The position numbers and the translations under genes are program-made. 64,000 nt of DNA from Gammaproteobacteria bacterium (GTDB taxonomy: Bacteria > Pseudomonadota > Gammaproteobacteria > Arenicellales > Poriferihabitantaceae), in NCBI GenBank assembly GCA_022822625.1, contig JAJEAV010000033.1, positions 3,500 to 67,499 on the forward strand, in the 5' to 3' direction. Below the pieces are notes generated by a model. The model made no database searches and was not told the origin of the DNA. It worked only from the letters and a program-made list of their open reading frames with translations. Each line of letters begins with the position of its first letter. Position 1 is the stretch's first letter. Below are positions 33,172-41,020 of the stretch, one piece after another.

Positions 33172-33399
33172 TGATGTCTCCTCTCGGTTGTTATTCTCCT
33201 GCAATTTGCAAGTCGAGCAAGGCAGTGAGAAAAGGAGTATTACTTTGAAGGCCTAGATTATACGGGCAGTAATGATTTGATTCAATCGTTTCGTGCATAA
33301 ATGTGAAGAGCAAATAAACTGCCGGTTTGGCAGCAAATAGATTGTCCACTATCGACCATCGCTCCCCTCGAGGGGAGTAGCTATACACGGTAGCATGTG

Positions 33400-34320
33400 C
33401 ATGCTTTACCATCGGTTGTCCCTGGATGTCATGGCATGCCAGTTCCCATGGCCCGTGATGTAGGCCGACAGGCCCCGTCCGGATATTTCAGTACCCAGAC
33501 CCTGGTTCTGACGCGGCGGTCGGCAGGCAGGATCTGTGGAATCATGTCACCACGCTACCGAAGGTCGGGTCCCGAATGGTCAATATTCGGGCCTGCGGGG
33601 GATGGCGGAGACGGTCTAGGTGCAAGGCAACGATCGAGGTTTTGGCCATCACCGCAACCGAAAGGATCCCGTCCCGGGGTAGCGAGCCCTGACTGGGTGC
33701 TGCTGAGCACCGAGGGCGCCATGGATGCCGGGATTGCCCGGACCGTGGTCGGCTGGTACGAGCGCCGGTGGACCATCGAGGAATACTGCCGGGCACTGAA
33801 ATCTGGCGCCCGTGTCGAAGACCGCCGGTTCGACGCGCTGGCACCTCAAGAAATACCTCGCCTTCGATGCCTCCGCATGCTGGTTCCCGACATCGCTAGG
33901 CTCGCCAGATTCCATCCGCGCAACAGCAACCACTGCGAGCATCACCATGGTCTGGAAGGGGCATGCCCTGCTCGGTCAGGCACTTCAACATACCGGACTG
34001 AAAACAATGAGTATGATCAAAACCGACCGAGTTAACCATGGGGCGTTGTGGGGTCCGAGAGGTGTGGCCCAGAACCTTCTCCCTGAAGTCAACTACCAGT
34101 CCCATTTCCGCCTTCTCCGACTTCTTCTGGCCCATTTTCCGGCATTCGGACGCGGCTTCGGCGAGGCCCCATCCACCTCCATGCCCCCCAACCGCGATTC
34201 TCGGGTGGACTCCTCGCACAGGATCCCCAATAGCCTCGTCTCCATCCGGAGGACTCGCCGGGTCAGTTCACGCTTTCGAACGGAAGCGTGCCCAGTATTT
34301 CGCGGCAATCCCCGCTAAAT
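33400..34320 (+). mobile_element. Degenerate GC-rich IS4-family (Tn5/IS50-like) transposase relic
   Basis: 'VVGWYERRWTIEEYCRALKSGARVEDRRFD' (nt ~33751-33830) fits the IS4 Y-(2)-R-(3)-E-(6)-K region. The reading frame then breaks repeatedly. GC is much higher than in the flanks: a hand-counted 60-nt line at 33661 is ~70% GC. Confidence 0.6.
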
Positions 34321-35856: not shown

Positions 35857-36099
35857 TCATTTGGAGTCTTCTTCAACAGGTATTAGCTTGACGGGTCGAG
35901 TCGGGACTATGGTTGAAATGGCGTGTTTATAGATAATCTGGTTAACCGAGTTCTTCAAGAGAATGACATACTGGTCATAGGAATCGATTTGGCCCTGTAA
36001 CTTGATGCCGTTAATCAGGAATATCGAAACCGGTATGCGTTCTTTTCTTAACGTGTTTAAAAATGGGTCCTGCAGGGCCGTCCCACTATATTTTTGCAT
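35857..36099 (-). CDS. hfq: RNA chaperone Hfq
   Basis: '[42 protein letters not shown]...[11 protein letters not shown]' (Sm1/Sm2 motifs). Confidence 0.95.
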
Positions 36100-36183: not shown

Positions 36184-36223
36184 AAGATGTAAATTAAATT
36201 TCTTTTTTTGTTGACAATACAAT

Positions 36224-36243
36224 AATAATTTGGGAATTATATC
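36224..36243. repeat. Right boundary of the tnpB unit: 8-bp direct repeat AATAATTT (36224-36231) plus 12-bp terminal inverted repeat GGGAATTATATC (36232-36243)
   Basis: Hand-verified against the sequence. The reverse complement GATATAATTCCC occurs at 37469-37480 and is followed by AATAATTT at 37481-37488. Confidence 0.8.
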
Positions 36244-36244
36244 T

Positions 36245-37432
36245 TTAAGTAACATACTGTTCTGCGTCCTGCCCGGTTTTCCCGGAATTGCCTCCGGCAT
36301 TGACCATGACATCTTTTCTGACATTCTCGGGCGCACCGGGAAGAGCAGATTCCTGCCCCATTTCCCACCCGGCAAGCAGGTAACCCTGCTTGAGAATGTT
36401 CCGGGATGCATTCACATCCCTGTCCAGTGATACACCGCAACCACCGCAATCAAACCGCCTCTTGTGCAGAGGCATCTTCTGACGATGGCCACAGACCGAG
36501 CAATCGGTACTGGTGTTATGCGGGGCAACCCGTACTACTTCCCCACCGGCACTTTCAGCCTTGTAGGCAAGCATGTCTACGAATTTGCCCCATTGCTGCT
36601 CCATGATGGCCCTTGCAAGATTGTGGTTCTTGACCATGTTATCAATCTGCAAGTTCTCTACCGCAATGCAGTTATGGCTCTTCATGATTTCGCTGGTGGC
36701 CCTGTGGAGTTCATCGTGTTCTATGATTCGCACTCTTTCCCACTCCCTCCGCAGGGCCATGACTTTCTTCCTTCGGCTATTGCTACCCTTTTCAGCTCTT
36801 GACAACTTCCGTTGCAGTCGCTTGAGCGTCCTGCGGTCAATGCGCCCGGCATCCAGCGTCATGCCACTGGACAGGATAGCCCTGTCCTTCAGTCCCAGGT
36901 CAACCCCGATGGGCTCATGGGGCTTTCTGGTGCAGGTGTTCTCCTTCTTCACTACGAACTGTATCGAAACCCGGAGGGCAGACTTTATGATCCTAACCAT
37001 CGTTGTCTTCCCTTCCGGCAGTTCCTTGAACCGGATAGTGCCGATACCCTTTATCCTGATGCTGTTACCATTGAACCTGGGATCAGGAACATCGAAGGAA
37101 TGAACGCCCCTGTGCCTGCTCTTTAACCTTGGATAGCCCGGCTTCTCGCCCGCTTTTACCCGCCTGAAAAACGCCTGGAACGCCTCATCAATTCGCCTCA
37201 ATGCGCTACGCTGGGTCTGTGCGTGATACTGCGAAAACTCCGGATCCTTGCGGATTTTGGTAAGGGACTTCTGCTGTTCGTAATAGGATATTGACCGCCC
37301 TGTCTTCTTGTAGCAGTCTTGCCTTTCTTGCAATGCTACATTCCACAATTCAGTCTGTTGACGTAGAAATGCATCAAGCCTGATATGAACAGGTTTGCCA
37401 ACTTTTGCTGTCTGTGTGATGGTGCGAATCAT
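36245..37432 (-). CDS. tnpB: IS200/IS605-type accessory protein TnpB (RNA-guided RuvC-like endonuclease family)
   Basis: RuvC motifs are 'IGVDLGLKD' (D), 'CIAVENLQI' (E) and 'SLDRDVNASRNI' (D). The zinc finger is 'CSVCGHRQ...FDCGGCG', and the N-terminus 'SYYEQQKSLTKIRKD...YHAQTQRSALRRIDEAFQAFFRR' is typical. I prefer the ATG at 37432 over the TTG at 37450. Confidence 0.85.
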   Translation of the reverse strand: MIRTITQTAKVGKPVHIRLDAFLRQQTELWNVALQERQDCYKKTGRSISYYEQQKSLTKIRKDPEFSQYHAQTQRSALRRIDEAFQAFFRRVKAGEKPGYPRLKSRHRGVHSFDVPDPRFNGNSIRIKGIGTIRFKELPEGKTTMVRIIKSALRVSIQFVVKKENTCTRKPHEPIGVDLGLKDRAILSSGMTLDAGRIDRRTLKRLQRKLSRAEKGSNSRRKKVMALRREWERVRIIEHDELHRATSEIMKSHNCIAVENLQIDNMVKNHNLARAIMEQQWGKFVDMLAYKAESAGGEVVRVAPHNTSTDCSVCGHRQKMPLHKRRFDCGGCGVSLDRDVNASRNILKQGYLLAGWEMGQESALPGAPENVRKDVMVNAGGNSGKTGQDAEQYVT

Positions 37433-37441
37433 GACCTGATT

Positions 37442-37463
37442 GTAACACAATCTAAAGTGTTAC
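37442..37463. repeat. Perfect 7-bp stem / 8-nt loop hairpin (GTAACAC-AATCTAAA-GTGTTAC) between the left TIR and the tnpB start
   Basis: Read directly from the sequence. It lies 10 nt upstream of the tnpB ATG and 6 nt inside the TIR. Confidence 0.6.
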
Positions 37464-37468
37464 CTTTC

Positions 37469-37488
37469 GATATAATTCCCAATAATTT
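37469..37488. repeat. Left boundary of the tnpB unit: TIR GATATAATTCCC (37469-37480) plus direct repeat AATAATTT (37481-37488)
   Basis: This is the partner of 36224-36243 and was hand-verified. Confidence 0.8.
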
Positions 37489-37604
37489 CATACGAATTGA
37501 AATGTGGCTAAAGGAAACGACCTTCAAATGGATTGTAAACCGAAAAACCCCCCTTGCCGAAAATAATTGAATCAACCCGGGCGGGAAATCCAAATGGAAC
37601 TGGA

Positions 37605-38753
37605 TTAGCAATCGCTCCGCTTATGCCACTCGACAAGATTATTTTCTTCGGTGCGAAGTGGGGCAGGATGATCCGGTTTCTCATCGACCCCGTCTACCCA
37701 AAATGGTGAACGTACAGACCTAAGCCGTCCTTCCGTCGGGTGGTCCACTTCGCCGAAAAAATCAACATCGTTCAGGTGTCCATCTTCAAACAAATCTACC
37801 AGAGACTGCACGGCAGAACAGGGAATATCAAGATCGCGCAATAGTTTCAACCAATCTGAATTTGATCGTTCCGACATTGCCTGGGACAGGACTTCATAAA
37901 GATCGGCAATGTGGTCACTGCGCTGTGCGGGGTCCCGCACCCAATCCGCTTCTGCCAGATCGGCACGCCCAATAGCCGTAAAAAACTCTACCCAGTTCCT
38001 GGTACTATACGGCAACACTGCCAAATACCCATCCTTGGTCGCATAAGGTTTGCGATAGGGTGACACGATACGTTCATAACCTGTTGTTCCGATTGCTGGT
38101 ACAAAAGTCTCGCCATCAAGATGCTCGGATAGCAAAAACGATGCAATGCCTTCATACATTGGAACTTCAATACAGCATCCCTGTCCGGTATTTGCATGAT
38201 GTATGAGTCCTGATAGAACTGCCAGGGCCAGATGAAGCCCTCCTACCTTGTCGCAAATGATCGTGGGCAGGAATCGGGGTTCATCCTTGTCGTTGCGGTT
38301 GAGGTCGGCAACTCCACATGCTGCCTGAATGATGTCGTCATAGGCAGGTAGTTCGGCATTTCGCCCGCCACTGGCATAGCCCGCCGCACAGCAATAAACG
38401 ATTTGAGGAAATGCGCTACGTATGCCTTCAGGATCAACACCCAACTGCTTGGCAGTCACCGGCCGCATGTTATGAACCAGTACATCGGCCCCATCCAGCA
38501 AAGACAGCAAATGATTTTTTCCTTCGGGTGATTTCAAGTCCAGTGTAATCGATCGCTTGTTGCGATTATTGTTGAGATACCCCGCTCCCATGCCTTCTGA
38601 ACGAGCAGGACGGACATAACGGAAAAGATCACCCGAGGGTGATTCGACCTTGATGACGTCTGCCCCGAAATCACCGAGATAGCGGGTAGCAAGCGGACCA
38701 AGTACAATCGTTGTCAAATCCAGAACTCTTGCGCCCTTCAGCAAGTCATACAT
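37605..38753 (-). CDS. Family III (CaiB/BaiF) CoA-transferase
   Basis: 'LKGARVLDLTTIVLGPLATRYLGDFGADVIKVESPSGD' and 382 aa length. Confidence 0.85.
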   Translation of the reverse strand: MYDLLKGARVLDLTTIVLGPLATRYLGDFGADVIKVESPSGDLFRYVRPARSEGMGAGYLNNNRNKRSITLDLKSPEGKNHLLSLLDGADVLVHNMRPVTAKQLGVDPEGIRSAFPQIVYCCAAGYASGGRNAELPAYDDIIQAACGVADLNRNDKDEPRFLPTIICDKVGGLHLALAVLSGLIHHANTGQGCCIEVPMYEGIASFLLSEHLDGETFVPAIGTTGYERIVSPYRKPYATKDGYLAVLPYSTRNWVEFFTAIGRADLAEADWVRDPAQRSDHIADLYEVLSQAMSERSNSDWLKLLRDLDIPCSAVQSLVDLFEDGHLNDVDFFGEVDHPTEGRLRSVRSPFWVDGVDEKPDHPAPLRTEENNLVEWHKRSDC

Positions 38754-38939: not shown

Positions 38940-40877
38940 TTACGAATTTGATTTTTGAAAATGAGGTGAAGGATATGTATTCACTGGGGCAAACGAAGTA
39001 TCGTATTGTGGGTAATTCTCTTTGGGATCAAATCCATTATTGAAAGTACCCTTGGAGTTCTTCAGTATGTTGATGGTGGCATCAAGTGCCATTCGCAAGG
39101 CTGGTTCGGTCCAGCCCCCCTCAACACTGTAGTTTTCTCCTGCGAAATAGATTTTTGAATTGCTACTATGTTCCTGATTATATGCCAATAATGCGTAATT
39201 CAAGGCCCAGTTTCTTTGGCGATACAGTTTAGCACAGCCGTGAAAATATGTCTGCTGTGACCAATGTATTACAATTGGGCCACTGTCTATATCAACATAC
39301 TGAATAATCGACTCGTTGAGTGTTGATTGACATATTTCCTCAAGCTTGTCTAGCAGAAACTGTCCGATATAAGAATTGTCGAAAGGCAAAAGTTTAGTAG
39401 CATCATCTTCCCAGGTATAACTCGCCAACAAGACACCTTGTTCTCCACTTTTGTCTGACCATTTCACACCATAGGCATCTTGCACATATTCATCAGTCAC
39501 AATAACTTGAGGGATTTTAGACACGCCATTTTCCCAATATGTCTCTTTCAGTTTATAAAACACTTTGCAACTGGTGATATTATGCTGAGAGTTCCGTGCT
39601 GACAAGACCAATGGGGGCATTTCTGATTGATCAAACCCCGTTAGTTTGATATTTAACTCCGAAGCCCACAAGGTTGGCGTAACAACCACATGATCAACTT
39701 CATAGGTTTCTTTGGTTGAATCTTCACATACGATGTTTATCTTGCCAGTTGATGGATCTTTCTGCAATTCTTGAACCGGAGAATTAGTCAGAATTCGTAC
39801 ATAAGGATTGGATTTTTTCGATGCCTCATATAGTGACGAGTCACTTCCGGGCGGAGGAGCGTAAAACAACCATTCGTCAAGAGCTTGAATGCCTTTGTAA
39901 AGCGGTGGTTCAAGCTTGTTTCCCTTGCTATCTGTAACATCCGAGTTGTAATGCGGCAAGTTGGATTTATCGGTGATACCAACCACAGTTTGCAAGTTTG
40001 AGTTAAACCCGAACATTACGCATCTGATAAACCACATTGAGCTCACTTCATAGAAAGCTCCCCAGCTTCCATCCCCGGACCCAATGAGCGCAAATATTTG
40101 TGCCTGATCATCATCCATGCCAAAACCTCCAAACCAACCATCATTTTGATATTTGGTAATTGCAGGTGTATATACCAGGTCATTTACATTCATCTGTTCA
40201 TAGTTATTTGAAACATTTTTCCAAAATTTACCCCATTCGGCCCCGCTATATAACTTGCCTGCCTCCTGTGTAAACAAGGATACAAAGGCAGAAACCTTCT
40301 GATAAACCTCTTTCAACTTATCGTTGTCCGGAGGAGAAGGATTTGACGGAGTATACGGCCAATCAATTAATGTCGGTTTCGAGTATTCGTTATCAGGTCC
40401 ATAGCCTTTGTTGATATAAATCCCAGTGTTGCCCGGTGCGGCGCCAGGATTGGGGAAATCCTGTAAAGTACAGTTGCCTTCATCCAAAATATAGTACTCA
40501 GATACAGAGTTTTTACTGTCGGGTTTCGAAAAAAATGGGAACCGCATGGCCCCCATTTCCATGTCAGTAACTCCATCTGTATGAGTTGTATAGTGCCTGC
40601 CACAAATTCTACTTGTCGCTTCAATAAGAATGATTTTGTAGCCGCAACGATACAGTTCCCTAGCTGCTGTAATCCCTGCAATACCGCCACCGACTATGCC
40701 GATAGTTGGCGGATTATCAGCATTGGGCGCGTTACCGATTGAATTCTTGTTGTTTTTTGCGAGTGTAAGCAAGTGATAATAATTGAATCGGAAATCAGGA
40801 GGGCTGGGATATGCAGGAAGCCATTCATCAGCAGTGTTAACAACTTGTTGAAGGGGGACATTAAATAGTGTCTTCAT
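38940..40877 (-). CDS. FAD-dependent amine oxidase / amino-acid 2-monooxygenase-like flavoprotein (IaaM / L-amino-acid oxidase family)
   Basis: Dinucleotide fold 'IGIVGGGIAGITAARELYRCGYKIILIEATSRICGR', 'EMGAMRFP' as in tryptophan 2-monooxygenase-type enzymes, and C-terminal 'IYFAGENYSVEGGWTEPALRMAL'. I prefer the ATG at 40877 (MKTLF) over the TTG at 40883. The gene is visibly AT-rich. Confidence 0.7.
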   Translation of the reverse strand: MKTLFNVPLQQVVNTADEWLPAYPSPPDFRFNYYHLLTLAKNNKNSIGNAPNADNPPTIGIVGGGIAGITAARELYRCGYKIILIEATSRICGRHYTTHTDGVTDMEMGAMRFPFFSKPDSKNSVSEYYILDEGNCTLQDFPNPGAAPGNTGIYINKGYGPDNEYSKPTLIDWPYTPSNPSPPDNDKLKEVYQKVSAFVSLFTQEAGKLYSGAEWGKFWKNVSNNYEQMNVNDLVYTPAITKYQNDGWFGGFGMDDDQAQIFALIGSGDGSWGAFYEVSSMWFIRCVMFGFNSNLQTVVGITDKSNLPHYNSDVTDSKGNKLEPPLYKGIQALDEWLFYAPPPGSDSSLYEASKKSNPYVRILTNSPVQELQKDPSTGKINIVCEDSTKETYEVDHVVVTPTLWASELNIKLTGFDQSEMPPLVLSARNSQHNITSCKVFYKLKETYWENGVSKIPQVIVTDEYVQDAYGVKWSDKSGEQGVLLASYTWEDDATKLLPFDNSYIGQFLLDKLEEICQSTLNESIIQYVDIDSGPIVIHWSQQTYFHGCAKLYRQRNWALNYALLAYNQEHSSNSKIYFAGENYSVEGGWTEPALRMALDATINILKNSKGTFNNGFDPKENYPQYDTSFAPVNTYPSPHFQKSNS

Positions 40878-40900
40878 GGTCAAATAAGTATGAGTTATGG

Positions 40901-41020
40901 ATAAAAGGTAGTGCGTGGAGGATGAGATTCATCAAGTGGCTATCGTTGTGCTATCGGATTATACTTTGATTCCGTCCTTGAATTCCACTTCCAGTGTTGT
41001 CCAACAGCAATTACTAATTA
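40901..41020 (-). mobile_element. Second IS256-family tail fragment (last ~20 codons plus the element end)
   Basis: The reverse complement reads '...EVEFKDGIKV*' followed by 'cttgatgaatctcatcctccacgcactac'. By eye it is ~85% identical to 15350-15437 ('GVKFKDGIEI...cttgatgaacctcatccccatgcactac'). Confidence 0.65.

Follow-up and report, generated by a model that had tools for sequence, protein, structure and literature searches.

How does a solitary tnpB gene come to lie between the kind of ends that are left by DDE transposition, and what might an RNA-guided nuclease do for an element of that kind? TnpB is the ancestor of Cas12 and is in use as a compact genome editor. To our knowledge, its natural role is understood only for IS605 and IS607 elements, i.e., elements whose transposases excise scarlessly beside a fixed motif. 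The question is raised here by a locus at positions 36224 to 37488 of a 64 kb stretch of gammaproteobacterial DNA (64,000 nucleotides of contig JAJEAV010000033.1, assembly GCA_022822625.1), which as a whole is referred to as the window. At this locus tnpB is found within a 1,249-bp unit that is bounded by terminal inverted repeats and which is flanked, in turn, by an 8-bp direct duplication. The answer at which we arrive, and which we hold to be quite probable, is that the unit is a non-autonomous DDE element of the IS1595 group, one that possesses the repeats of that family, that carries tnpB plus an omega-RNA scaffold instead of a transposase, and which may be subject to RNA-guided retention at a TAM (transposon-associated motif).

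The unit and its protein

The 12-mer GGGAATTATATC at 36232-36243 and its reverse complement at 37469-37480 form a perfect 12-bp terminal inverted repeat, a sequence that with 0 mismatches is found at only two places in the window, namely the two ends of the unit. Flush against both of the repeat tips is the 8-mer AATAATTT, at 36224-36231 and again at 37481-37488 (as read on the plus strand). By itself this 8-mer is not rare in the window, with 6 copies versus 3.1 expected, and it is instead the flush placement against both arms that is the non-chance feature. The inverted repeat extends inward as well, to 25 nt with 84% complementarity (arms 36230-36254 and 37458-37482), and includes a TGTTAC/GTAACA block. 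An original prediction, made from the sequence alone, had described the perfect 12-bp repeat and the abutting 8-mer with what prove to be exact coordinates, and the imperfect TGTTAC matches that it noticed further inward are part of this longer repeat.

As tnpB is found on the minus strand, position 37480 is the left end of the element and position 36232 its right end, that is, the side of the predicted omega RNA. The terminal inverted repeat on the right, i.e., on the 3' side of tnpB, spans 36232-36254 (tip GGGAATTATATC, inner block AAGTAACA) and that on the left, on the 5' side, spans 37458-37480 according to the same repeat analyses. Between them is tnpB itself (36245-37432, minus strand; 395 aa including the stop), with its stop codon 13 bp from the right tip and its ATG 48 nt from the left tip. 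It is the only sensible long open reading frame (ORF) of the unit, just as had been claimed. A subterminal hairpin, GTAACAC-N8-GTGTTAC, can be read directly from the sequence at the left end (37442-37463, minus strand), one arm of which is the inner inverted repeat.

The tnpB product matches Pfam domains OrfB_IS605 (PF01385) and Cas12f1-like TNB (PF07282). Its best NCBIfam match is guided_TnpB, at 236.6 bits, with IS200_TnpB second at 219 bits, which is below the cut-off for that model of 425. The RuvC D-E-D residues, i.e., D178 (in GVDLG), E259 (in AVENL), and D337/D339 (in DRDVNA), are intact, as is the CxxC...CxxC zinc finger (C311, C314, C329, and C332). All are invariant in an alignment of 29 relatives and all align with the equivalent residues of the ISDra2 TnpB structures 8bf8, 8exa, and 8h1j (E = 5.5e-36), ISDra2 being the closest natural solved structure. 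The earlier impression that this TnpB looks catalytically intact is borne out by these alignments. No exact entry for the protein is on record. A single-protein search of species-representative genomes gave a best relative of 36% identity, and closer relatives were reached with an alignment-based search, giving rise to 80 loci with identities of from 66% down to 35%. Viral contigs supplied relatives of at most 38% identity. In public annotation these relatives are described as IS200/IS605 accessory proteins.

Ends shared with IS1595-family transposons

The end pattern GGGAATTATATCNNNRRGTAACA was scanned against contigs from one genome per species. Among the matches listed there are more than 119 stretches, from genomes of many phyla, and these include metagenome-assembled genomes (MAGs) of Rhodothermales, Paracoccaceae, Thioclava, Arenicellales, Poriferihabitaceae, unclassified Gammaproteobacteria, and others, with many of the source names pointing to sponge microbiomes. 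Paired ends enclose units of two kinds, that is, those containing tnpB only or instead those containing an IS1595 transposase plus cargo. In this first scan the former were 1.2-1.4 kb and the latter 2.6-4.4 kb in length, with overall ranges of 1.16-1.73 kb and 1.4-5.4 kb, respectively. In the transposase-carrying units a protein of 313-342 aa starts about 80 nt from one end and matches Pfam DDE_Tnp_IS1595 (1.5e-39) plus Zn_ribbon_IS1595, as well as NCBIfam transpos_IS1595 (186.9 bits). The cargo that follows is restriction-modification-like, consisting of an EcoRI-like or D12 methyltransferase, a GmrSD_N/HNH protein, and others.

These IS1595-transposase genes are bracketed by the same GGGAATTATAT(C/A) ends as is the window unit. 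A second search, using eight IS1595-type transposases as seeds, provided 80 further loci. Ends and duplication were readable for 33 of those 80, with GGGAATTATATAC-type ends found around elements of 1.4-5.4 kb, and in 30 of the 33 the 8-bp AT-rich duplication is exact. Altogether, tnpB-only units with this type of end and whose duplication copies match at 7/8 or 8/8 positions number 33 (29 of them exact), these being 32 independent delimited cassettes plus an additional one, L382. Transposase-carrying units that match by the same standard number 43, nearly all exactly. Both the length of the duplication, 8 bp, and its AT preference are the same in these two classes. The IS1595-family member ISApl4 also makes AT-rich, 8-bp direct repeats (PMC12561309). 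The presence of IS1595-type ends along with an 8-bp duplication, in combination with the lack of a transposase within the unit, therefore marks the window unit as a non-autonomous IS1595 derivative.

The original prediction had taken the terminal repeats plus 8-bp duplication to be the footprint of DDE transposition, listing the IS1595 family among its candidates, and the match with IS1595-transposase elements agrees with that. It had further suggested a tnpB/omega-RNA cassette that serves as a passenger, one resembling a miniature inverted-repeat transposable element (MITE), of a DDE transposase. Ends and duplications are indeed shared with IS1595 elements, as that suggestion would have it, and mobilization would then presumably be in trans. 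As defined, MITEs are both short and non-coding, and the window unit fits in terms of its ends and duplication while failing in terms of size and coding (1,249 bp, 395-aa protein); ‘mobile insertion cassette’ describes it better. Units which possess the same ends and no ORF were encountered as well, specifically one of 193 bp with an exact 8-bp duplication (L021:1156-1348), one of 846 bp with a 7/8 duplication (L046:745-1590), and a 38-bp remnant that consists of two repeats found back to back (L041:3434-3471).

A clade of tnpB cassettes

More than 50 relatives of the window TnpB, with identities of 39-66%, are found alone within this same frame of ends. The closest, at 66% identity, is from the Gammaproteobacteria MAG SB0678_bin_7 and has the same 12-bp tips. 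It also was assembled as a 1,242-bp contig with nothing but the element on it, as is typical for repeats, and the same MAG holds an IS1595-transposase element with matching ends, GAGAATTATATCGGAAAGTAGCA ... TGTTACTTTCCGATATAATTCCC (L037). An automatic search for boundaries, requiring an inverted repeat (10/14 or better) with a flanking direct repeat (7/8 or better), returned exactly one solution in each of 22 loci, with GGGRMTTATAT-type ends seen in 20 of them; the solutions at L174 and L218 were set aside as unrelated matches. A GTATATAATTCCC-type right tip directly follows the conserved RNA region, described below, in nearly all relatives of at least 39% identity, and is kept even where the left end or duplication has decayed. 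There are genomes as well with multiple copies, each site having its own duplication, for example a Hyphomonadaceae chromosome with at least ten copies of 1,728 bp and an Arenicellales chromosome with four.

Between these same 12-bp tips there also are two further lineages of TnpB, the L082/L075 type and the L097 type, which are about 26% identical to the window TnpB and 33-35% identical to each other. Canonical relatives (35-40% identity, from Firmicutes as well as others), by contrast, do not have such ends, their right ends instead reading ...GAGAAGCCCC-hairpin-GGGGAGTGGTCAC, as seen with IS605-type elements. The tnpB cassettes, that is, are numerous, recently mobile, and spread over many phyla, and together they represent a large, previously little-noticed clade present in marine (sponge-type) symbionts. 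A search for additional copies of the ends, with or without tnpB, had been proposed along with the original prediction, and both forms are found across many genomes. It had allowed as well for relatives possessing IS605-style ends, which would have undone its reading, and here the clade relatives display inverted repeats and duplications, with quite different, asymmetric ends seen among the canonical relatives of 35-40% identity.

Among delimited elements there are none in which tnpB and an IS1595 transposase are found together inside one pair of ends. The sole adjacency of the two is a nested one, in which an IS1595 transposase gene is split at about residue 262 by the insertion of a second-lineage tnpB cassette (L023:1760-3916). 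Two relatives, of 62% and 58% identity (L017:3001-4187 and L383:1501-2740), are found inside phage-like arrays (capsid/adaptor genes; runs of small ORFs), where they are packed between co-directional genes, keeping their RNA region and right tip and lacking a recognisable left repeat or duplication. These copies may be immobilised and kept by phages. A further cassette, 63% identical (L382:1397-2738), adjoins genes for an EcoRV-type endonuclease and a D12 methyltransferase, which is the type of cargo that is carried by IS1595 elements with transposases.

A predicted omega-RNA scaffold that ends with the repeat

The last approximately 140 nt of these elements are conserved as nucleotides, and this is far beyond what protein identity would lead one to expect. 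A covariance model, R1, with two stems was built from 22 such tails, and was used since MAFFT alone shifted one of those stems, stem B, by one column in some rows. R1 matches all 52 of the clade loci at 38-95 bits, with each match ending at the last base of the repeat. In the window the match is to 36232-36374 on the minus strand (65.1 bits, E = 3.7e-13), an omega-RNA-like scaffold whose identification draws also on counts of covariation and which overlaps approximately the last 45 codons of the tnpB ORF. Among the canonical relatives R1 gave no match, and in Rfam no omega-RNA family was matched, the sole match being to a snoRNA by chance.

The scaffold consists of a stem A, a long-range stem B, a conserved AGAACAGTAT, a hairpin to which the inner repeat contributes, and, at the tip, UUCCC, for which pairing with the upstream loop GGGAA is proposed. 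As fitted by R1 itself, pairing amounts to 96% in stem A and to 96.5% in stem B, the latter closing directly ahead of the invariant AGAACAGTAT and having changes on both sides in six of its six pairs. At least eight complementary versions of stem B are seen, e.g., GCGTCC/GGACGC, GCGCAG/CTGCGC, and ATGCGGC/GCCGCAT. Folding of the single sequence gives z = -1.25 and a fold which differs from this comparative model.

There is a third pairing, one that is absent from R1, between the loop of stem A (GGGAAU) and the repeat tip (AUUCCC), and which is 85.9% paired. Double changes are found at two of its positions (AU 35 vs. GC 8 at one; AU 29 vs. UG 6, GU 4, and CG 3 at the other), and variants include GGGACU:AGUCCC in one relative (L214) and GGGGUU:AGCCCC in two others (L188 and L001). 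By a statistic that ignores phylogeny there are 17 double-change cells versus 6.4 +/- 2.1 in shuffles (0/500), and with the partner slid the pairing falls to 50-71%. We hold this tip-loop pseudoknot, as read from the comparative alignment, with moderate confidence. Pseudoknots between an upstream loop and those bases found just before the guide have been described for TnpB RNAs (PMC10711439).

The scaffold thereby appears to run right through the transposase-binding repeat, and to do so to its last base. In known TnpB systems the guide follows the scaffold. With the conserved RNA structure ending at the repeat tip, the predicted guide therefore starts within the flank, that is, with the first base of the duplication. 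For the window the predicted guide would be templated by 36212-36231 on the minus strand, i.e., the first 20 nt of the flank found 3' of the element on the tnpB strand (AAATTATTATTGTATTGTCA), of which the first 8 nt are the duplication copy. This would give a guide of AAAUUAUUAUUGUAUU... and AAATTATTATTGTATT as candidate target.

Additional R1 matches were noticed beside certain cassettes. At two loci (L152:818-927 and L154:827-935, both minus strand) there is a second, strong match (80 and 67 bits) on the opposite strand approximately 1.7 kb upstream of the main copy, which suggests a neighbouring inverted copy or a fragment. In a Bryobacterales relative the left end, if read backwards, gives a weak R1 match (L001:2789-2893, minus strand; 23 bits) with a GGGGUU loop and a GAGCCCC tip, and there the inverted repeat may extend far into the RNA region.

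A motif beside the left end

If a guide begins with the duplication, then what would be found on the 5' side of the sequence that it matches? Flanks were tabulated for the 32 independent delimited cassettes, as oriented by tnpB. At position -9, directly 5' of the left duplication copy, there is a G in 30 of these 32 (binomial p = 1.3e-17, with a G background of 0.226), and the flank logo as a whole is T in 15/32, R in 24/32, T in 20/32, and then the G in 30/32, or T-R-T-G. The dinucleotide TG is present in 18/32 versus a background of 0.063. In the window the motif is TATG (37489-37492 on the minus strand), immediately 5' of the duplication on the tnpB strand, and the L382 duplication, ATTCGATT, is preceded by GGTG. 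The phase is rigid, with G never found at the first base of the duplication and found just rarely one base further out.

At the mirror position, just after the right duplication copy, a C is found in no more than 9 of the 32 cassettes. As the mirror position is unbiased, the signal is asymmetric and follows tnpB. A symmetric target preference of the transposase was considered as a source of the signal and rejected, both on these grounds and because the controls differ, i.e., among 43 transposase-carrying elements, as oriented by the transposase gene, there is a G in 18/43 and a TG in 3/43 (Fisher p = 2e-6 and 3e-6, respectively). Also rejected was a 9-bp duplication as source of the flanking G, as it is the repeat's C that precedes the right-hand copy. 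For canonical Firmicutes relatives, pairwise left-end boundaries were too imprecise to define a TAM.

The position of the motif is exactly where a TAM must be, provided that the guide starts at the duplication. Reconstructed without the insertion, the window allele reads TATG | AAATTATT | ATTGTATT..., that is, motif followed by the predicted match to the guide. In the filled site the left junction matches the predicted guide for 8 nt only, and the right junction is preceded by ...TTCCC rather than by the motif. Given an 8-nt match on the left and a junction lacking the motif on the right, self-cleavage consequently would be avoided, as in IS605 elements.

A proposed mechanism and its rivals

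The following sequence of events is what we envision. An IS1595-type transposase, supplied in trans, would make a staggered cut in an AT-rich target, resulting in the 8-bp duplication. The scaffold, overlapping the 3' end of tnpB and running to the last base of the right repeat, probably pairs its tip UUCCC with the upstream loop GGGAA, and the guide would be transcribed from the flank, its first bases being those of the duplication. Within an uninserted allele the sequence matching that guide would be preceded by the left flank, which in this family almost always ends in G (T-R-T-G, with TATG for the window). With that motif read as the TAM, alleles lacking the insertion would be cut by TnpB, and homologous repair would promote the copying or retention of the cassette. 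For IS605-type TnpB, the cutting of empty alleles has been shown to promote copying or retention by homologous repair, and it is by analogy that the role is extended to the cassettes considered here. The enrichment for the motif would represent, on the assumption that selection acts following insertion, the survival of those insertions that TnpB is able to defend or copy. A more exotic alternative is that TnpB directly influences the choice of target. In its fullest form our proposal is that a TnpB clade has moved from HUH/serine-recombinase elements onto an IS1595 chassis, with the repeat tip doubling as the 3' strand of the pseudoknot, the guide beginning with the duplication, and cassettes either persisting or being placed almost only beside a TAM. 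That fuller version we offer tentatively, as a possibility which we would about as readily give up as keep.

A number of points weigh against the proposed mechanism. No IS1595 transposase was found by tblastn in the 64 kb window, so that where the original prediction looked to a resident transposase with matching ends, such a transposase is instead found, as to family, in other genomes. No empty site was found either: via the hfq and CoA-transferase neighbours, other samples supplied only the same filled site, and a 24-nt junction pattern gave 0 matches in the metagenome collection. As to the RNA, stems A and B were fitted by R1 itself, support for the pseudoknot is modest and uncorrected for phylogeny, and one subclade pairs the pseudoknot only over GGG(A):(U)CCC. 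As to the motif, DDE insertions would be expected to be blind to a TAM and yet are at such sites in 94% of cases, for which selection following insertion must be assumed. Its sharing by TnpB lineages that are only 26% identical is a little surprising for a TAM, and the T-R-T-G logo is also that of a known promoter motif, the extended -10.

It is these last points that give rise to a rival for the motif in particular. T-R-T-G might represent the upstream half of an extended -10 element that, in combination with an AT-rich duplication, forms a promoter at the junction that reads into the short left end, with just those insertions persisting in which tnpB is expressed. What links TnpB to its site would in that case be expression rather than targeting. 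The extended -10, ‘TRTGn’, is a textbook promoter motif, and the T-R-T-G, then one base, then AT-rich stretch of the cassettes does fit it; motif sharing by lineages of approximately 26% identity also is in keeping with a promoter, as are the mere 48 nt from tip to ATG that the left end of the window unit leaves. G is equally frequent, however, where the duplication cannot be a -10 hexamer (18/19), i.e., where hexamer position 2 is not A or position 6 is not T, as where it can be (12/13). It also is found in 16 of 16 elements of at least 1,340 bp, including ones with left ends of 160-466 nt that are roomy enough for a promoter of their own. The rigid phase of the motif speaks against the junction promoter as well, and a simple sigma-70 scan, which requires a -35 box, found none at the junction on the tnpB strand. 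We regard this explanation as unlikely and favour reading T-R-T-G as a TAM, in so far as flanking sequences can tell, though both could hold.

The other rivals concern the unit as a whole. Could it be, for example, an ordinary solo tnpB of the IS200/IS605 group (IS1341-type), with the 12- and 8-bp matches coincidental in AT-rich DNA? IS200_TnpB is after all the second-best NCBIfam model, albeit below its cut-off, there are hairpins near both ends of the unit, and the public annotation of its relatives points the same way. The same ends and 8-bp duplications recur, however, in dozens of independent insertions as well as around IS1595 transposases, a recurrence which contradicts coincidental repeats, and canonical relatives have different, asymmetric ends and no R1 match. 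With there also being no Y1 TnpA gene in or beside any cassette examined, we judge this possibility to be extremely improbable. Nor do we give much more weight to a self-contained tnpB element of an undescribed type, one moved by TnpB or some other enzyme and whose ends would resemble those of IS1595 through shared ancestry or convergence. In its favour, tnpB and an IS1595 transposase never share one pair of ends, the nested case being the sole adjacency, and the orientation-specific motif shows that something TnpB-related shapes where cassettes are found. We know of no strand-transfer activity, however, for TnpB, a RuvC nuclease. The ends are identical over at least 12 bp to those of transposase-carrying elements, sometimes within the same genome, and the two classes do not differ in duplication length or AT preference. 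This rival we consider to be very improbable. As an undescribed type of element, an alternative which the original prediction had held in reserve, it is overtaken as well by the reporting in 2023, as seen in the main text, of DDE-associated and solo TnpBs between such ends (PMC10691335).

The insertion site

The element is located between a CoA-transferase gene (37605-38753, minus strand) and hfq (35857-36099, minus strand), which is followed by hflX. Once the element is taken out along with one duplication copy, approximately 250 bp would separate the stop of the CoA-transferase gene from the start of hfq, a slight correction to the roughly 260 bp previously supposed. The perfect tips, perfect duplication, and intact ORF point to an insertion that probably is recent. 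In two other data sets of this organism, contigs that are 99.7-100% identical have the same insertion and break inside of the element, which fits with there being several copies or instead with strain variation. The left end of the window unit itself had 0 matches in the metagenome collection.

Spanning the right junction, at 36211-36240 on the plus strand, is a sigma-70-like match (TTGACA, 18 nt, AATTAT; 10/12), a match to consensus only, which reads into the element and is antisense to both tnpB and the RNA. Elsewhere in the window, a gene for a 647-aa flavin amine oxidase (38940-41000; Pfam Amino_oxidase, 6.5e-28) is found in a stretch with a G+C of 0.415-0.427 versus approximately 0.48 for the rest. 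The highest-G+C kilobase of the window (0.555) is found at a plus-strand ORF at 33397-34035 that contains a YERRWTIEEY...K stretch. From that stretch an IS4-type transposase fragment had been guessed, a guess which was dropped given no Pfam match at E <= 0.001.

Comparison with known systems

As an IS1595-family relative, the window unit has repeats that begin with GGGAATTAT and an AT-rich, 8-bp duplication, and elements with the same ends encode a DDE_Tnp_IS1595/Zn_ribbon_IS1595 transposase, often along with passenger genes. It differs in that it has no transposase, its sole cargo being tnpB plus a guide-RNA scaffold that is fused to the right repeat. Within the IS1595 family the ISNwi1 subgroup has ends of the form ggnnatTAT, 8-bp repeats, and passenger genes, and it is to an ISNwi1-like subgroup that the window unit may belong. 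The IS1595 family and its passenger-carrying relatives reportedly were treated by Siguier, Gagnevin and Chandler in 2009.

In terms of TnpBs that are associated with DDE transposases, the main text of Altae-Tran et al. 2023 describes six branches, DDE-1 to DDE-6, having inverted terminal repeats and a tnpB whose 3' end is no more than 250 bp away from where the element ends (PMC10691335). It also describes solo TnpBs between ends almost the same as the ones of transposase-bearing elements, which is read there as mobilization in trans (PMC10691335). As those branches are described in that text, the window unit is like them in its symmetrical inverted repeats, in its tnpB stop being 13 bp from the tip (vs. 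the approximately 250 bp used there), and in its occurrence as solo copies. It is unlike them in that tnpB here is never next to a transposase within one element, and also in that a flank motif and a role for the repeat tip in pairing inside the RNA are not described in the 2023 main text (PMC10691335). The partner that is named in that main text is IS630 (PMC10691335), and a 2026 review lists ISL2, IS630, and IS1031 (PMC13565253). The main texts of these two papers do not name IS1595, and the clade may already be included, without a name, in one of the branches of the 2023 work. Among the papers found to mention IS1595 together with TnpB, as judged by titles and abstracts, there is no description of tnpB within IS1595 ends.

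With canonical IS200/IS605 elements, including the IS1341 group and ISDra2, the window unit shares a TnpB of the same family (OrfB_IS605 plus zinc-ribbon/TNB) with an intact active site. It shares as well with IS200/IS605 and ISDra2 both a structured RNA, overlapping the gene at its 3' end and stopping at the element boundary, and a short motif on the 5' side of the site that the predicted guide would match. In contrast with IS200/IS605 it has inverted repeats and a duplication, both of which canonical relatives ending in ...GGGGAGTGGTCAC are without, and an ORF for a Y1 HUH TnpA is absent both from the 1,249-bp unit and from all 33 of the delimited cassettes. That the architecture is not the canonical one, as was recognised from the start, accordingly can be upheld. 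Furthermore, the 8-bp duplication here intervenes between motif and left end, and the last part of the RNA is a DDE transposon end rather than a hairpin bound by TnpA plus a cleavage site.

Among eukaryotic-type counterparts, Fanzors include nuclease-only, non-autonomous inverted-repeat elements in cut-and-paste transposons, for which a scaffold that includes the repeat and a fixed duplication is predicted, with the RNA continuing past the end of the transposon (Yoon et al. 2023; PMC10711439). The window unit likewise is a nuclease-only inverted-repeat element with its repeat predicted to be within the guide-RNA scaffold. Unlike the Fanzor case it is bacterial and has a typical, compact TnpB protein. 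Its duplication also is variable in sequence among cassettes and so cannot be fixed scaffold but instead would be the first 8 nt of the guide. With MITEs and mobile insertion cassettes the unit has in common its inverted repeats, its duplication, the lack of a transposase of its own, and thereby dependence in trans. In contrast with MITEs it is coding and 1.2 kb, and its cargo appears to be not just any passenger but one that is joined functionally to the right end.

The 2026 review argues that TnpB should be of little benefit to DDE transposons, and that the two are seldom paired in prokaryotes (PMC13565253). The clade bears on that view, as its cassettes are numerous, mobile, found on IS1595 ends, and associated with a strong site motif that is not made by the transposase alone. 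If T-R-T-G is a TAM, then these cassettes would allow a direct test of guide acquisition in a DDE context, of whether homing selects among what otherwise are random insertions, and of how a transposase-binding end and a guide-RNA scaffold can use the same bases. If our proposal is true, then RNA-guided homing or retention works as well for bacterial transposons of the cut-and-paste type, i.e., as a prokaryotic counterpart of Fanzor elements, or, alternatively, TnpB may bias the insertion sites of a DDE transposase. For editing work, the clade offers many natural pairs of TnpB and scaffold, with a short candidate TAM ending in G.

As a type of arrangement, the solo TnpB within DDE ends is already known. 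What appear to be new are details, namely the partnership with IS1595, the size and phylogenetic spread of the clade, a repeat tip that is common to the transposase site and the RNA, and the orientation-specific T-R-T-G. The window unit, that is, is IS1595-like in terms of how it moves and probably is of IS605 type, TnpB plus omega RNA, in terms of how it makes use of a guide.

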